A stretch of DNA of 36,151 bases, from the IMG/VR virus record IMGVR_UViG_2585427765_000017. The stretch is one strand, 5' to 3'. Shown here in pieces: positions 1,419 through 9,359 of the stretch. Numbering within the stretch: position 1 is the first letter of the stretch; every line of letters starts with the position of its first letter. The DNA comes from a virus (lineage: Duplodnaviria > Heunggongvirae > Uroviricota > Caudoviricetes). A program made the translations under genes and the position numbers. The notes below the pieces were generated by a model. The model saw only the letters and a program-made list of their open reading frames with translations. It was not told where the DNA came from and did not search any database.

Positions 1419-3890
1419 TTAAAAATCAGCCTGATTCGGAATCAGTTTTTGCCAGATAGCTGAAACGTATTTTGCCTGGTAACGGGCGTCATCAAGTGCA
1501 TTATGGCGCTCACCTTCGAATGGAATAGCCGTTCTGGCATCGAAGTCTATGGCTTTCCCCAGCTCAACGATTGTGCGTACATCGCGATCGTTGTAGTAAC
1601 GCCACGGGCAGGGGATCCCCTGCCGTTCGTATGAACGGCGCAAAATCGTGTTGTCGAAGTTGGCTCCATTTCCCCAGACCTGAACAAAAAATTCACCGGA
1701 GTTTTCGTCGATAAATTCCCGCAATTGTAACAGTGCATCATCTAACGGGATTTCATCGGTCATAATGGCAGATTGCGCTTCGCGTGATTGCTTAAGCCAC
1801 CATTTAATGGTGTCCCGATCAATGACTCCGCCAGCAGTTTCCAGATCGATAGTCTTACTAAATTCCGGTCCCATATCTCCGGTTTGCGGATCGAAAAATA
1901 TTGCACCTATTGAGATAATCGGGGCATCAGGATTTTTTCCCATGGTTTCAAGGTCGATCATTAGATGGTCACACGTCCTACTGGCGGATGTGATTTCGTG
2001 ATGACCGTTCACCTTAATTGAGTGATCTGCCGTCTCGCCAGTTTCATTATCGCTATTGTGATGCTGATTGCCGCCAGTGTTCTTCTTGTTTGGATGTTCA
2101 GCGCCTTCCATTTCCTCCGGATCATCTTCCTGAACTTCAACCTGATACTCTTCATCGAATGTTTCCTGGTATGTTGCGTCGCCCATCACCGCGCCACAAT
2201 CAGGGCAGTTGCCGCCGCCGGTCTGACCGCAGGCGGTGCAGATCTTTTCCGGTTCCTGTTGCACTACTGGTTCAGGTTGTTTCGTTTCTTGCTCGTTTTG
2301 TAACGCATTTGGGCTGTTTTGTTCCGCTTTCTGGCCGTTCTGTTCCGTTTCTTGCTGGTTCTGGTTCACAGAATCGCGGGTTTCCATCCCCTTCACCCAT
2401 TTCGGATCATTCGGATCGCTAATTCCTACAACAAATTCACCACGTGATACTGCAAGCAGTTCATCGGCGTCAGGCTGGCTGATATTGGCTGCCTGCATAA
2501 TGTTGTTTACTTCGTCAGCGGTAACTTTTACCGGCCCTGGTTGTGCGGTCGTGTCAGATGCACCAGTATTTTGTTGTGAACCTGAGTATGTACTGTTTTT
2601 GCGGACGAAATATTCTTCTTTCGTGATTTCAGTAGCCCCGGCAGCCAGTGCCTTATCCAGACCAGAAAGTTTGTTTGCGCGACCGTATTTTTCACCATCC
2701 TTGTCGGTGAAGAGGAAGTAGAACGGCCCCTCACGCTCTACAGATGGTTCGACTTCCACTTTGCATTCGGTTTTTTCGTTGTCCGGAATTGCCGTTTCCA
2801 CTGCATCAGTTTCTGGTACTGGCGACGAGAGAGTATCAGTTGCGATCTGATTTGTTCCTTCATCTTCAAACACGCCCTTTGTAGTCAGGTATTCAGTAAT
2901 GTATTTGTTCAGTGCCACAGGGTCTTTGTGAATGTCGATCGGACGCTCACGGACAAGGCCAAAAATAGTCTGGCGGTCGTAGCGAAGGGCATCAGGCTGT
3001 TTGCGCATTGATGCTGAGATACGCTTCCAGTCTTCGCGGTCGTTGTTGATAACTTCATTTTTTGCCCAGCGATGGATGCTGCCGTCAATGTTTCCGGCAT
3101 CAATGTCACCAGGCCACAGAGCGTAGGCCAGTTCATCATCCAGTGTTTTCCATGTCTGCTTATATTCGCGACGAATGACTGCAGTGACAGGGGGGATATT
3201 TTCTGCTGAGTTTTCAGTGTGCTGTCGGTTGACTCTGGCGCGGGCGAGATCAACAGCAGACGTGTATTTTCCGGTTTCCTTGCGTTCACCTTCGCGACGT
3301 TTTTTCCAGATGCGCATCTCTGCCTGAATTTCGGGCCATTTAGCTCCAGGCTTACATTTATGCTTAACCCACCCGATGGCATGCAACTTAAGTTCTGGAT
3401 ACATGGCGTTAACTTCTGGCATTTTCATCAACGCTTCAACGATATGTCCGTCGAATGTTGCCATGTCTTCCTGCAACAGTTCCTGTGCACTAATCACCAT
3501 ATCAACGGTGATGTTTTCACATGTGTCGAACTTAACCATGACAGCGTTCTGTACTTCAGGGGCCAGCTTGTCAAAAGTGACGTTCATCGGATCTGATTCA
3601 GTCTCAACCGGGACAAAGGAAGCTGACTCCTCATCCCAGCGGTTTTCCTGCATATATTCAGCATCCCAAGAATCGAGGGCAGGGCGGGGTATACCGGGTT
3701 TATCCTCGCAAACAAGAAATTTATAAGCGCAGTCCTGAGCAGCCGGATATTGCTCCAGGAATTGCCAGGTAAATTTGGCACGGGCGCGGCGTTCGTCGCC
3801 AGCTTCAATGGCAGTGGCTACAGCGACTGCACCTTCTTCCTTTATTGCCTGTTCGTCCGGAATAGCGGCGCAAATAAAGACTTTACTCAT
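1419..3890 (-). CDS. Large putative exonuclease (823 aa) with C-terminal DnaQ-like DEDDh 3'-5' exonuclease domain and a central Cys4 zinc ribbon
   Basis: C-terminal motifs read in translation: LMIDLETMG (Exo I), VWGNGANFD (Exo II), HNALDDARY (Exo III); CTACGQ...CPDCG zinc ribbon mid-protein; occupies the exo/recombination position of the early-left operon. Confidence 0.65.
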   Translation of the reverse strand: MSKVFICAAIPDEQAIKEEGAVAVATAIEAGDERRARAKFTWQFLEQYPAAQDCAYKFLVCEDKPGIPRPALDSWDAEYMQENRWDEESASFVPVETESDPMNVTFDKLAPEVQNAVMVKFDTCENITVDMVISAQELLQEDMATFDGHIVEALMKMPEVNAMYPELKLHAIGWVKHKCKPGAKWPEIQAEMRIWKKRREGERKETGKYTSAVDLARARVNRQHTENSAENIPPVTAVIRREYKQTWKTLDDELAYALWPGDIDAGNIDGSIHRWAKNEVINNDREDWKRISASMRKQPDALRYDRQTIFGLVRERPIDIHKDPVALNKYITEYLTTKGVFEDEGTNQIATDTLSSPVPETDAVETAIPDNEKTECKVEVEPSVEREGPFYFLFTDKDGEKYGRANKLSGLDKALAAGATEITKEEYFVRKNSTYSGSQQNTGASDTTAQPGPVKVTADEVNNIMQAANISQPDADELLAVSRGEFVVGISDPNDPKWVKGMETRDSVNQNQQETEQNGQKAEQNSPNALQNEQETKQPEPVVQQEPEKICTACGQTGGGNCPDCGAVMGDATYQETFDEEYQVEVQEDDPEEMEGAEHPNKKNTGGNQHHNSDNETGETADHSIKVNGHHEITSASRTCDHLMIDLETMGKNPDAPIISIGAIFFDPQTGDMGPEFSKTIDLETAGGVIDRDTIKWWLKQSREAQSAIMTDEIPLDDALLQLREFIDENSGEFFVQVWGNGANFDNTILRRSYERQGIPCPWRYYNDRDVRTIVELGKAIDFDARTAIPFEGERHNALDDARYQAKYVSAIWQKLIPNQADF

Positions 3891-6420: not shown

Positions 6421-6897
6421 TTAAGTTCCTGTCTTGGTGATGTTCTGGCTTTTCCGTTTTGATTCTTGATTTTTCAGATAGTTAGCTACCTTCATTTCCA
6501 TTGCGGCAATGTAGGCGCGAACGTCATGATCAACCCAACTAGGCTCCGTAGCATTTCCAGATAAGATGAAAGCCACAATTGCTCTTTTTTCATCAGAGGC
6601 GGCTTGATAAAGGCTGTTTATGTCTAAAAGTTCACTTTTTGTATCTGAAGTGGATGGGGTTGGTATGGGGTATTCGTTAAGCCCCCAATGCTCTGGACCA
6701 ACCACATCAGAAAAGAAACGCCATAGTTCTGGAAGTTTGTCTTTACTTATCGAACCTTTCTTAATCCAGTCATGGATTGATGGTGGTTGGACTTTGAAAT
6801 GACGTGCGATTTCCGCCTTTGATTTGACGGCTCCTGATGCAATTTTTTTGTTAATGGCCTGCTCTATCGCTCGGCCTAAGTCTTTACCACTAAGCAT
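6421..6897 (-). CDS. Prophage CI-like repressor (HTH), no recognisable LexA/S24 autocleavage domain
   Basis: N-terminal HTH region (GKDLGRAIEQAINKKIASGAVKSKAEIARHFKVQPPSIHDWIKKG) resembles the phage CI-repressor HTH family; divergent from the cro-like gene; flanked by matching operator repeats. No Ala-Gly/Ser...Lys S24 signature seen in the 158-aa product. Confidence 0.75.
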   Translation of the reverse strand: MLSGKDLGRAIEQAINKKIASGAVKSKAEIARHFKVQPPSIHDWIKKGSISKDKLPELWRFFSDVVGPEHWGLNEYPIPTPSTSDTKSELLDINSLYQAASDEKRAIVAFILSGNATEPSWVDHDVRAYIAAMEMKVANYLKNQESKRKSQNITKTGT

Positions 6898-6997: not shown

Positions 6998-7021
6998 TGC
7001 GTGTTTTTTGGAGTTCATTCG

Positions 7022-7345
7022 ATGAAAAAAGATAACTATTCATTCAAACGAGCTTGTGCTGTTGTCGGTGGGCAATCAGCAATGGCTAGGCTTTTAGGTG
7101 TATCTCCTCCAAGCGTAAATCAATGGATCAAAGGTGTACGTCAGTTACCTGCTGAGAGATGTCCTGCGATTGAACGAGCAACAAAAGGTGGTGTCCTGTG
7201 TGAAGAACTTCGTCCTGATGTTGATTGGACATACTTACGACGCTCGTCATGTTATTCGCAGAATATGTCGATGAAGCAACCAAATGACGAAAACGATCAT
7301 ACCCGAAGCATCAAGAGGCAAATGATTCATGAAAATCAAACATGA
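7022..7345 (+). CDS. Cro/YdaS-like HTH regulator
   Basis: MKKDNYSFKRACAVVGGQSAMARLLGVSPPSVNQWIKGVRQLPAERCPAIE is a Cro/C1-type HTH resembling Rac YdaS. ATG at 7022 with GGAG RBS is preferred over the track GTG at 7001, which would lie at the predicted transcription start. Confidence 0.7.
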   Translation: MKKDNYSFKRACAVVGGQSAMARLLGVSPPSVNQWIKGVRQLPAERCPAIERATKGGVLCEELRPDVDWTYLRRSSCYSQNMSMKQPNDENDHTRSIKRQMIHENQT

Positions 7346-7754
7346 GCACATCCGCATGGCGATGAATGCCTGGGCATACCCTGATGGTGAGAAAGTTCCT
7401 GCAGCTGAAATAGCCCGGACTTATTTCGAACTGGGGATGACGTTCCCTGAACTGTATGACGACAGCCATCCGGAAGCCCTGGCTCGCAATACCCAGAAAA
7501 TTTTCCGCTGGGTAGAGAAAGACACCCCTGATGCAGTTGAAAAAATTCAGGCGTTGTTACCAGCGATCGAAAAGGCAATGCCACCTTTGCTGGTGGCCAG
7601 AATGCGCAGCCACAGTTCAGCTTATTTTCGGGAGCTGGTGGAGACGCGGGAGCGACTGGTGAGAGACGCTGATGATTTTGTCGCAGTGGCAATCGCCGGT
7701 TTCAATCAGATGAACCGTGGTGGCCCGGCAGGAAATGCTGTGGCAGTACATTGA
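7329..7754 (+). CDS. YdaT-like (CII-like) regulator
   Basis: MKIKHEHIRMAMNAWAYPDGEKVP... matches my recollection of the Rac YdaT N-terminus; immediately follows and overlaps the Cro/YdaS-like gene. Confidence 0.6.
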   Translation: MKIKHEHIRMAMNAWAYPDGEKVPAAEIARTYFELGMTFPELYDDSHPEALARNTQKIFRWVEKDTPDAVEKIQALLPAIEKAMPPLLVARMRSHSSAYFRELVETRERLVRDADDFVAVAIAGFNQMNRGGPAGNAVAVH

Positions 7755-7825
7755 CTGACAATAGCCATATCGAATCGCTTCCGGCAACTCGTGAGTAAAA
7801 AGATTCGGTATCAGAAGAGGTGAGT

Positions 7826-8896
7826 ATGGCTAACGCCTGGCTCAGATTATGGCATGACATGCCAAATGACCCTAAGTGGCGAACAATTGCCAGGGTGTCA
7901 GGGCAGCCAATTGCAACAGTGATGGCAGTGTATATCCACCTCCTGGTGAGCGCGTCACGAAATGTCACGCGAGGTCACATTGATGTCACGACAGAAGATT
8001 TGGCAAGTGCGCTCGACGTGACAGAAGAGGTAATTGATTCAATTTTGCAGACGATGCAGGGGCGGGTACTTGATGGTGATTTAATCACTGGATGGGAAAA
8101 ACGCCAGGTGCTGAAAGAGGACAACGGCAATATTTCGCAAACCGCAAAATCTCCGGCAGAGCGCAAGAGGGCGCAGCGAGAGAGGGAAAGAAAGCGGGAA
8201 CAAAATGGCGATTGTCACGGCGAGTCACGAAATGTCACGCACATGTCACGACGAGTCACGACAGATAAAGATACAGATAAAGATACAGATCAAGAAGATC
8301 AAAACACTATGGTCCATGGCGTAAAAAACGCCACGAACCAGGCAGGGGATGTTCAGACCGTCACTCCTGGCCAGCCCGCAGGCACGACACCGGAAGCCGA
8401 TTCAGCGTATGCGCTGAAAGCCGATTCGGGCGCTGTGCAGCAGGTGATGACCGCAAGGCAGGAGCAATCACACCAACTTCAGCAGCCTGAAGCCGATTCC
8501 GCCATTCAGCGGGAAGCCGATCGGGTAGTCCCGGAAAACACCGGGCAGCCTGTGGGACGAGTGGATTATCCTGATGTGTTCGAACAGGTCTGGCGGGAAT
8601 ACCCGTTGCGTGCTGGGGCAAACCCGAAGAAATCCGCTTTCAGTGCCTGGAAGGCCAGATTACGCGAGGGGGTGTCACCAGAGGCCATGCTGGATGGCGT
8701 GAGGCGTTACGCAAGATACCTTGCGGCTACCGGGAAAACGGGAACGGAATTTGTTCAGCGAGCGACGACGTTTTTTGGACCGGACCGGAATTTTGAAAAC
8801 CCCTGGCTGCTCCCGGTAAGCGGCACGAACAACCAGCGTTGTGTGAATCATATTTCTGAACCGGATACCGAAATTCCACCGGGCTTCAGGGGGTAA
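7826..8896 (+). CDS. Replication initiation / replisome-organiser protein (O-like, YdaU/DnaT-like C-terminus), contains the putative origin
   Basis: Position after cro/cII-like genes; N-terminal MANAWLRLWHDMPNDPKWRTIARV and C-terminal WREYPLRAGANPKKSAFSAWKARLREG...FFGPDRNFENPW pattern typical of phage replication proteins; iteron clusters lie inside the ORF. ATG at 7826 with GAGGTG RBS preferred over track GTG at 7820. Confidence 0.6.
   Translation: MANAWLRLWHDMPNDPKWRTIARVSGQPIATVMAVYIHLLVSASRNVTRGHIDVTTEDLASALDVTEEVIDSILQTMQGRVLDGDLITGWEKRQVLKEDNGNISQTAKSPAERKRAQRERERKREQNGDCHGESRNVTHMSRRVTTDKDTDKDTDQEDQNTMVHGVKNATNQAGDVQTVTPGQPAGTTPEADSAYALKADSGAVQQVMTARQEQSHQLQQPEADSAIQREADRVVPENTGQPVGRVDYPDVFEQVWREYPLRAGANPKKSAFSAWKARLREGVSPEAMLDGVRRYARYLAATGKTGTEFVQRATTFFGPDRNFENPWLLPVSGTNNQRCVNHISEPDTEIPPGFRG
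7950..8290. repeat. Iteron clusters (putative ori) inside the replication gene
   Basis: Four T/GTCAC(G/A) copies at about 7954-7990 plus inverted CGTGAC at about 8026-8031; five GTCACG copies at about 8212-8262 spaced about 10-11 bp; then tandem GATAAAGATACA x2 and an A-rich stretch. Resembles lambda ori lying within O. Confidence 0.5.
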
Positions 8897-8936
8897 GTGT
8901 TGATTTCTGGTCATGAGGTAATTTTCAGGAGGACTT

Positions 8937-9359
8937 GTGGCAAAAGTTTTTACACAAGAAGAGCGAGAAAAAATTAAAGGGCAGGTTGTTGAACTCGTAC
9001 GCCAGAGTGGGCGTGAGACGTTACGGCAACTGGAAGTCAAGACAGGTGCGACAAGATATCTGATGAGCGTTCTCGCAAGAGAGCTGGTTGCCAGCGGCGA
9101 TGTATACAACTCTGGTTACGGGTTATTCCCGTCTGAACAGGCGCGTAAGGACTGGCAAAATGCCCGTAAAAAGCTCTCAAGGGCAAAGCTGAAGAAACCA
9201 TCTGCGGTTGATCCGGACCTTATCTGGTCATTACCTGACGGAGAAATACGTCGCTACGACAGGCGTCAGAACATAATCTGTCGCGAGTGCCGGAAGAGTG
9301 AGGTTATGCAGCGAGTGCTGGCGTTTTATCAGGGTAATTTTCAGGAGGTGATGGCGTGA
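8937..9359 (+). CDS. Hypothetical protein (140 aa)
   Basis: ORF with GTG start preceded by CAGGAGG; no family recognised. Confidence 0.45.
   Translation: MAKVFTQEEREKIKGQVVELVRQSGRETLRQLEVKTGATRYLMSVLARELVASGDVYNSGYGLFPSEQARKDWQNARKKLSRAKLKKPSAVDPDLIWSLPDGEIRRYDRRQNIICRECRKSEVMQRVLAFYQGNFQEVMA

Follow-up and report, generated by a model that had tools for sequence, protein, structure and literature searches.

Introduction

An origin of replication inside the gene of its initiator is textbook knowledge. In phage lambda, ori-lambda contains four 19-bp palindromic iterons in one cluster. The replisome organizers of TP901-1 (ORF13) and Tuc2009 (Rep2009) bind direct repeats located in their own genes, and these repeats are the origin, according to PMC8965321. 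In Bacillus phage SPP1, gp38 binds the oriL repeats of gene 38, which adjoin an AT-rich unwinding element (PMC6316719). We have analyzed here a stretch of 36,151 nucleotides (nt), the viral record IMGVR_UViG_2585427765_000017 of IMG/VR (Caudoviricetes), which is referred to as the window at its full length and whose host element is a Rac-like lambdoid prophage of E. coli. Within the window, positions 7954-8310 probably constitute a bipartite replication origin located inside the gene of its own initiator (7826-8896). The advance over the known systems is one of detail and breadth; the worthwhile and testable details are the frozen synonymous sites, the concerted switches of the iteron word, a tract common to several phyla and the mimicry of the DnaT tail.

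Our literature search found nothing relevant on GTCACG as a phage origin. The paper on the "Eru" replication regions of Stx phages makes no mention of iterons, DnaT or origins, and Rac oriJ was only mentioned in passing in the texts searched.

Results

Two phased iteron arrays and an A+T-rich tract in the initiator gene

The features of the locus, given as positions of the window, are the following:

7826-8896, + strand: replication initiator gene of the replisome-organizer type, 356 amino acids (aa), from the list of open reading frames (ORFs)
7954-7990, + strand: iteron array 1, GTCACG, GTCACG, GTCACA and GTCACG, starting at 7954, 7964, 7974 and 7985 (spacing 10, 10 and 11 bp)
8017-8022, - strand: single inverted iteron copy (CGTGAC on the + strand), codons 64-66, in the turn of the helix-turn-helix
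8214-8260, + strand: iteron array 2, five copies of GTCACG starting at 8214, 8224, 8234, 8245 and 8255 (spacing 10, 10, 11 and 10 bp)
8261-8310, + strand: A+T-rich tract with purines on the coding strand, candidate DNA-unwinding element, abutting the last iteron
8310-8340: imperfect palindrome with 13-nt arms and a 5-nt loop (85% complementary), directly after the A-rich tract
8843-8893 (codons), + strand: last 17 residues of the protein, VNHISEPDTEIPPGFRG, a copy of the host DnaT tail VNTVSEPDSQIPPGFRG

A first-pass annotation made from the letters of this DNA had proposed two clusters of GTCACG (about 7954-7990 and about 8212-8262), an inverted copy, and then a tandem duplication and an A-rich stretch, all within the coding sequence of a replication gene, and had read them as a probable origin. 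Each of these elements was recovered. Array 1 carries four copies, one of them GTCACA, and array 2 carries five; the inverted copy was located at 8017-8022, and the tandem duplication with its A-rich stretch at 8261-8310, after array 2. All lie inside ORF 7826-8896.

In both arrays the iterons are spaced by 10-11 bp, which corresponds to one copy per helical turn, and the arrays are about 260 bp apart. Tandem Repeats Finder detected array 2 as a 10-nt period repeated 4.9 times (8214-8263). The clustering is far from random: 307 bp hold 9 of the 26 GTCACG matches of the window, while shuffling gave 15.9 matches in 36 kb, which amounts to about 0.14 in 307 bp, resulting in a Poisson probability of about 1e-13 computed from the shuffle counts. 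At 7974, the third iteron of array 1 deviates from the consensus by reading GTCACA, a variant that other members also contain. Array 1 covers codons 43-55, i.e. the end of the helix 29-45 and the loop preceding the helix-turn-helix, and array 2 covers codons 130-145, within a disordered linker.

Synonymous sites of the iterons

Relative to the start codon, the hexamers are found in frames 2, 0, 1 and 0 in array 1 and in frames 1, 2, 0, 2 and 0 in array 2, so that one DNA word is read as S-R, V-T or G/C-H according to the frame. Codon usage was analyzed in homologues taken from annotated phages and from one genome per species. The set was restricted to 22 non-redundant genes with a gap-free alignment of the first 125 codons (mean pairwise nucleotide identity 67.7%), and we limited the test to residues conserved in at least 90% of the sequences. 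Codons with their third base inside an iteron (n = 8) had a mean codon entropy of 0.13 bits and a major-codon fraction of 0.98, compared with 1.56 bits and 0.50 for the remaining conserved codons (n = 46; Mann-Whitney p = 4e-6). A single codon is used throughout for V47 (GTC, 22/22 sequences), T48 (ACG, 22/22), G50 (GGT, 22/22) and H51 (CAC, 21/21), whereas all synonyms of Val, Thr and Gly are used elsewhere in the gene. Four codons are used for R49, the third base of which falls in the spacer. The inverted copy is less conserved than the direct copies. These frozen synonymous sites show directly that purifying selection acts on the iteron DNA word and not on the peptide, which removes the view that the repeats are merely constrained by coding.

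The reverse causality would make the DNA repeats the shadow of a repeated peptide (SRNVT, VT, DKDT) needed by the protein. Such a view agrees with the invariance of S44, V47, T48, R49, G50 and H51 in the protein alignment, and with the resemblance of the D-x repeat to acidic linkers such as that of DnaT (PMC13377028). It is contradicted by the occurrence of the hexamer in three frames and by the freezing of synonymous positions. Furthermore, the spacing tracks the DNA helix (10-11 bp) and not the codons, the copy number shifts by units of 10-11 or 21 bp, and the G+C content at third codon positions (GC3) of the D-K codons is only 8-17% in hosts with 66-69% GC. The first-pass annotation had also pointed to matching peptide repeats in the encoded protein and had considered that repeats simply constrained by coding would speak against an origin. 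Both SRNVT and TDKDTDKDTD do occur in the translated protein. As the reading frame of the hexamer changes between copies, they are a by-product of the DNA repeats and not a separate feature, and the frames together with the synonymous-site test rule out a simple coding constraint.

Conservation and joint switching of the arrays in relatives

In about 25 diverged loci, GTCAC is found at gene positions 129, 139, 149 and 160 (array 1) and at around 387-430 (array 2), and GTGAC, the inverted copy, is found at gene position 193 in most loci of the GTCACG clade. The two-array layout is shared by Pseudomonas phage Marin, Aeromonas phage pAEv1818 and about 25 loci of Gamma- and Betaproteobacteria, among them Escherichia, Serratia, Rahnella, Aquitalea, Bordetella, Acidovorax, Castellaniella, Chromobacterium, Gilvimarinus and others, with 56-75% protein identity to the window protein. 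The iteron copy number varies from 3 to 6 in these relatives and changes by single repeats. A 21-bp insertion in one E. coli/E. albertii variant brings two additional repeats into array 1 and lengthens the gene by seven codons. A profile search of viral contigs with the N-domain alignment returned only copies 99-100% identical, unusable for divergence tests.

More distant relatives use another iteron word, which is always identical in both arrays. The word is GTAACG in loci of Pantoea, Enterobacter, Marinobacter and Sphingomonas, and CGAACGC in four further loci. In one GTAACG-type locus (L027), the inverted copy has been switched too, to GTTAC. The same word switches were recovered de novo when each zone was searched by itself for its most frequent 6-mer. 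The joint switch at two sites 260 bp apart is best explained by a single protein reading both. Comparison of the iterons across related prophages, proposed in the first-pass annotation as a check, has therefore yielded fixed gene positions and concerted motif switching. When the alignment was grouped by iteron type, no clear group-specific residues were seen in the recognition helix or the wing. As to helical phasing between the two arrays, the first-to-last distances are mostly near whole turns, although shared ancestry and unit-sized insertions or deletions make this phasing uninformative.

Several variant loci were recorded in the course of this comparison. In L027 and L025, both of the GTAACG type, the arrays are rearranged into palindromic GTAACGTTAC units with a 21-bp spacing, at gene positions of about 120-200 and 400-470. 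The placement of GTAACG is restricted by the reading frame because reading in frame 2 makes a TAA stop, and the conflict between the two codes may shape the array architecture of these relatives. In L040 (a Serratia metagenome-assembled genome) and L042 (Pantoea), both with the gene start at position 3001 of the locus, the N-domain (about 60% identity) is fused to different C-terminal regions (396 and 434 aa), and both genes are devoid of iteron arrays and of the A-rich tract, i.e. they carry the N-domain without an in-gene origin. In L031, L033 and L039 (Ventosimonas, Entomomonas), array 1 could not be recognised, and no more than one or two words with AACG precede the GATAAAGA repeats; the origin of these relatives may be reduced, or they may use another iteron that escaped detection. 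Some replisome organizer genes of the Firmicutes type, on IMG/VR contigs related to Enterococcus phage phiEf11 (L141, L144, L191), use the same hexamer GTCACG as the E. coli prophage. Every iteron word seen (GTC-, GTA-, GTG-, CTA- and CGA-ACG) shares the core ACG.

The A+T-rich tract

Tandem Repeats Finder reported a 12-nt tandem repeat at 8261-8295, ACAGATAAAGAT repeated 2.9 times, and AGA recurs every 6 nt in the window at 8263, 8269, 8275, 8281, 8287 and 8293. The segment 8261-8310 is the least stable 30-50-mer within 7701-8950 and belongs to the top 0.6% of the whole window. The consensus of the tract, AGATAAAGATA(A/C)AGA, is also present in Firmicutes phages. In 25 loci with a local GC content of 34-69%, the 42 nt following the last iteron contain 29% GC versus 55% for the N-domain coding region, and the GC3 of the first 12 tract codons is 12% versus 57% (Wilcoxon p = 1e-5). 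Even at 66-69% GC, as in Castellaniella and Pseudothauera, its sequence is CTAGATA(C/A)AGATA(A/C)AGATA... These data show that the A+T-rich tract, like the iterons, is shaped at the DNA level. It abuts the last iteron, the place expected for an unwinding element, and unwinding would start at 8261-8310.

The tract is kept from Enterococcus to Pseudomonas phages and remains unchanged when the iteron motif or the helicase-recruitment partner changes. In bacterial chromosomal origins, the DnaA-trio adjoins the DnaA boxes and offers a comparison for a tract read in single-stranded form. It is conceivable, though we hold the idea only tentatively and consider it doubtful, that the AGAT-periodic tract is a sequence-specific element read as single strand by the replisome organizer or by a conserved host factor. 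If so, the tract and the co-varying arrays would represent a portable bipartite origin cassette written in the codons of the initiator.

Two GATC sites (Dam methylation) are located in the tract at 8288-8291 and 8297-8300; the E. coli variant of the L004 type has none there, and they are thus probably incidental. The palindrome 8310-8340 is missing from L004, the sequence of which diverges after the A-rich tract, and its participation in the origin is uncertain. Its position recalls that of the palindrome found to the right of the A+T-rich region in ori-lambda.

Family and fold of the initiator

The protein comprises an N-terminal winged helix (residues 1-100), a basic helix (110-127) and a disordered linker (about 129-245), followed by a small helical C-terminal domain and the DnaT-like tail. 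An AlphaFold model built from 60 homologues has a pLDDT above 89 over most of residues 11-100; it shows in the N-domain three helices, a loop (46-55), a helix-turn-helix (56-77), a beta hairpin (78-87) and the basic helix (110-127), with disorder from residue 129 onward. The surface loop encoded by array 1 accepts insertions of 7 to 23 aa in relatives, and because its length varies so freely this loop is quite unlikely to read the iteron itself.

No Pfam family was assigned to the whole protein at E<=0.01. The PHROG assignment is phrog_3729 ("replication initiation protein"), the PHROG "replisome organizer" families 4880 and 5968 were also matched, and the E. coli homologues are named "phage replisome organizer" by NCBI. 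The N-terminal 165 residues are collinear with the replisome organizer of phiEf11 (residues 4-157, 24% identity, E 2e-9 in BLASTP), which is a clear member of PF09681 (E 1.3e-31). Among the 60 homologues, only one reached PF09681 at E<=1. These matches point to a remote relative of the Gram-positive phage replisome organizers, with a winged helix resembling the N-terminal domain (NTD) of DnaD.

The first-pass annotation had called the product an O-like replication protein. This wording does not hold at the sequence level: no hit to PF04492 (Phage_rep_O) was obtained, either with the whole protein in Pfam or in the list of weak N-domain matches, and the DnaD-NTD-like winged helix is of the replisome-organizer kind. 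In function the protein is analogous to lambda O, without being a member of the lambda O family. Rep proteins of iteron plasmids have two tandem winged-helix domains and iterons of 17-22 bp, and an assignment to this class (RepA or pi type) was rejected.

The C-terminal domain is predicted to be a small helical bundle (pLDDT of the core around 90), and a Foldseek search of its model against the PDB returned nothing (best E 0.86). The PHROG label "DnaD-like helicase loader" could not be confirmed. A word-indexed search with the C-terminal 132 residues gave 46 matches, many of which are frameshifted fragments. The linker carries a second repeat family, RAAGCCGATYS, with four copies at 8393, 8417, 8489 and 8513 (8393-8523; chance expectation 0.18). 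The copies follow one another at 24, 72 and 24 bp, always in frame, and encode PEADS, KADS, PEADS and EADR; these repeats may be either a DNA site or a duplicated peptide.

The DnaT-like tail and helicase recruitment

In a phmmer search against the PDB, residues 332-356 matched the last residues of the DnaT chains 6aep, 2ru8 and 9zbt_D, and residues 333-356 matched positions 156-179 of the 179 positions of NF002770. The pattern of the DnaT tail, ...SEPDxxIPPGFRG, is present in the window protein. The DNA-binding domain of DnaT (PF17948) gave no hit in the C-terminal 132 residues, whereas L004 scores 6e-18. A DnaT-like tail (I/K)P(P/A/D)GFRG recurs on L017, L024, L027, P0043, P0047 and P0104, the C-terminal regions of which are otherwise unrelated.

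The absence of a DnaC/DnaB-type loader gene downstream, noted in the first-pass annotation, is borne out by three approaches: Pfam found no helicase, loader or primase in the next four genes, none is annotated by RefSeq in a near-identical prophage inserted between potC and potB, and tblastn of the window with DnaB, DnaC-like, lambda-P-like and primase-helicase queries from relatives gave nothing. The use of host DnaB-DnaC is a reasonable inference. It had further been suggested that loading may rely on host factors through the DnaT-like C-terminus. The tail itself is real, but it does not simply replace a loader because L027 carries the same tail although a DnaC-like loader gene follows. Its recurrence, together with the case of L027, makes a short motif that docks to a host factor more likely than a loader substitute. 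A 2026 paper on the preprimosome structure does not state the function of the DnaT C-terminal tail. The partner genes found in the relatives are the following:

Loci L004 and L007: lambda-P-like gene
Aeromonas phage, L020 and L027: DnaC/IstB-like ATPase
Locus L035: DnaB
Marin and L016: primase-helicase

Such varied partners would be expected of a portable module made of an origin and its binder.

Genetic context and prevalence

The ORF 7826-8896 is housed in the early rightward operon. Upstream are found:

6421-6897, - strand: RacR-type repressor gene
7001-7345: YdaS/Cro-like gene
7329-7754: YdaT/CII-like gene

The product of 7001-7345 is named "toxin YdaS" by Pfam, yet it also matches P22 Cro and HTH_3; similarly the product of 7329-7754 is "toxin YdaT" in Pfam, yet it matches the PHROG "CII-like transcriptional activator" (E 1e-44). 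The genes bearing the YdaS and YdaT names stand here where a lambdoid early operon has cro and cII. The genes located 3′ of the initiator gene are, in order and as named by Pfam, DUF977, DUF4406, DUF4752 and antiterminator Q.

At least 80% of the segment is kept in 1647 of 5426 complete E. coli genomes (about 30%), where RefSeq often annotates the gene as a "hypothetical protein". Deposited complete phage genomes (e.g. Tritos and Evi) are 100% identical over this region and 96-99% identical over a wider segment. The prophage located between potC and potB in another E. coli genome is 96-99% identical to the window over the shared regions. It lacks the head genes and contains pseudogenes and insertion sequence (IS) fragments, and the window is about 12 kb longer.

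Discussion

A probable origin and its alternatives

The proposal of a probable origin made in the first-pass annotation finds strong comparative support in the purifying selection at the DNA level, the fixed positions of the iterons, the co-switching of the motif and a tract that stays A+T-rich independently of the host, and it is further backed by the kinship to replisome organizers with proven in-gene origins. By analogy with TP901-1 ORF13, Tuc2009 Rep2009 and SPP1 gp38, the initiator would bind the iterons of its own gene. The N-terminal winged helix would recognize the hexamers, one per helical turn, in the arrays of four and five and in the inverted copy. A multi-protein complex would be formed, with the DNA between the arrays possibly looped or wrapped, and would open the adjoining A+T-rich AGAT-periodic tract at 8261-8310. 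The C-terminal part, including the tail copied from DnaT, would then recruit the helicase-loading machinery of the host, as the element has no helicase, loader or primase of its own.

Several observations weigh against this reading. The tract is only moderately A+T-rich (around 30% GC), and it also encodes the acidic D-x repeat, which may have a role at the protein level. The arrays lie within the gene, and their co-inheritance with the N-domain is thus automatic and does not show which protein binds. Array 1 is missing from the characterised Gram-positive relatives. The N-domain remains below the family cut-offs, with 15.6 bits against 23.3 for PF09681 (covering profile positions 1-119 of 121) and 15.5 bits against 49.8 for TIGR01714. 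Finally, the near-identical prophage copy appears defective, and the window copy may therefore never fire.

This last point leads to the alternative that survives best, an origin by descent that has become inactive in this copy. The loss of head genes, the pseudogenes and the IS fragments of the near-identical prophage speak for it, as does the deviant iteron GTCACA at 7974. We consider it unlikely, since the ORF is intact, the region is 100% identical to deposited phage genomes, GTCACA occurs in other members, and at least 80% of the segment persists in the 1647 of 5426 complete E. coli genomes.

In a second alternative, the initiator or another regulator would act at the arrays, as operators or roadblocks, to control expression of the initiator gene, and replication would start elsewhere. 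Initiators of the iteron type commonly autoregulate through extra repeats, as known from iteron plasmids, and neither array 1 nor the inverted copy has an equivalent in the Gram-positive relatives with a proven in-gene origin. Nevertheless, array 2 and the A+T-rich tract match the layout of the proven origins in those relatives, a pure operator would not need the DNA-level selection detected on the tract, and the replication region showed no further cluster of repeats and no further A+T-rich candidate. A purely regulatory role is thus improbable, but autoregulation, especially through array 1, may coexist with the origin function.

The repeats could also act in cis for something else, be it packaging, partition, recombination or the binding of the neighbouring CII-like or RacR regulators. 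Phased short repeats occur in pac and par sites too, and co-occurrence cannot decide which protein binds. This explanation is very improbable: the same layout is found in phages with a different repressor, Cro and downstream genes, the N-domain being the only constant partner, and the vicinity contains no gene for ParA/ParB or terminase. When folded as RNA, 7940-8035 does no better than shuffled sequences (z -0.48) and gives no sign of structure. An origin of the DNA repeats driven by the peptide is hardly credible, being ruled out by the frames and the synonymous-site test.

Significance

With this locus, a very common family of prophages that includes the deposited phages Tritos and Evi gains an origin that can be tested. 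It is a clean case of overlapping codes, in which a DNA-binding function would fix the synonymous sites of a coding sequence; such frozen sites can mislead codon-based selection analyses as well as recoding and synthetic-genome projects. The words GTCACG, GTAACG and CGAACGC are natural specificity variants for the study of joint changes of origin and initiator, and the mimicry of the DnaT tail suggests a possible route by which loader-less phages gain access to the helicase-loading machinery of the host.

Comparison with known systems

The relationship to host proteins is limited. The N-terminal domain of DnaD, the Bacillus protein of replication initiation and restart, shares about 10% identity with the window N-domain; this host protein remodels DNA, and no reading of phased hexamers within its own gene is known for it. 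With host DnaT, the last 17 residues are nearly identical and sister proteins such as L004 carry PF17948, whereas the window protein is devoid of PF17948 and its C-terminal helical domain matches nothing in the PDB.

The resemblance to lambda O concerns organization. Both genes belong to an early rightward operon after cro and cII or their analogues, both contain an in-gene origin followed by an A+T-rich, strand-asymmetric tract, and both proteins combine an N-terminal origin-binding module with a C-terminal recruitment module; a lambda-P-like gene follows in some relatives. In contrast to lambda, the protein does not match the lambda O family, each iteron has a 6-bp core, the spacing is 10-11 bp within two arrays, and no P gene is present here. 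Long palindromic iterons of the ori-lambda type were not found in the window gene.

SPP1 is likewise comparable by layout: its origin is in the initiator gene, direct repeats lie beside an AT-rich element and the initiator is termed a replisome organizer. It differs by a second origin 13 kb away and by its own loader (gp39) and helicase (gp40).

The closest systems are those of the Gram-positive replisome organizers (TP901-1 ORF13, Tuc2009 Rep2009 and r1t ORF11; PF09681/TIGR01714), with phiEf11 as the sequence example, whose N-domain is collinear with that of the window protein. In phiEf11 and 17 other non-redundant Firmicutes relatives, a hexamer (GTAACG, GTCACG, GTGACG or CTAACG) is repeated three to six times at 10-11 bp and followed by ACAGATA(A/T)AGA repeats. 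As in the window, these hexamers are located in a low-complexity linker just after the N-domain, and the A+T-rich repeats come next. The window protein differs in scoring below the family cut-offs and in its C-terminal region. Furthermore, the Firmicutes loci examined contain no array in the zone of array 1 and no inverted copy, both of which are found in the proteobacterial subfamily. On the strength of these sequence comparisons, a second, co-varying upstream array written within the winged-helix code, together with the inverted copy, sets the proteobacterial subfamily apart.

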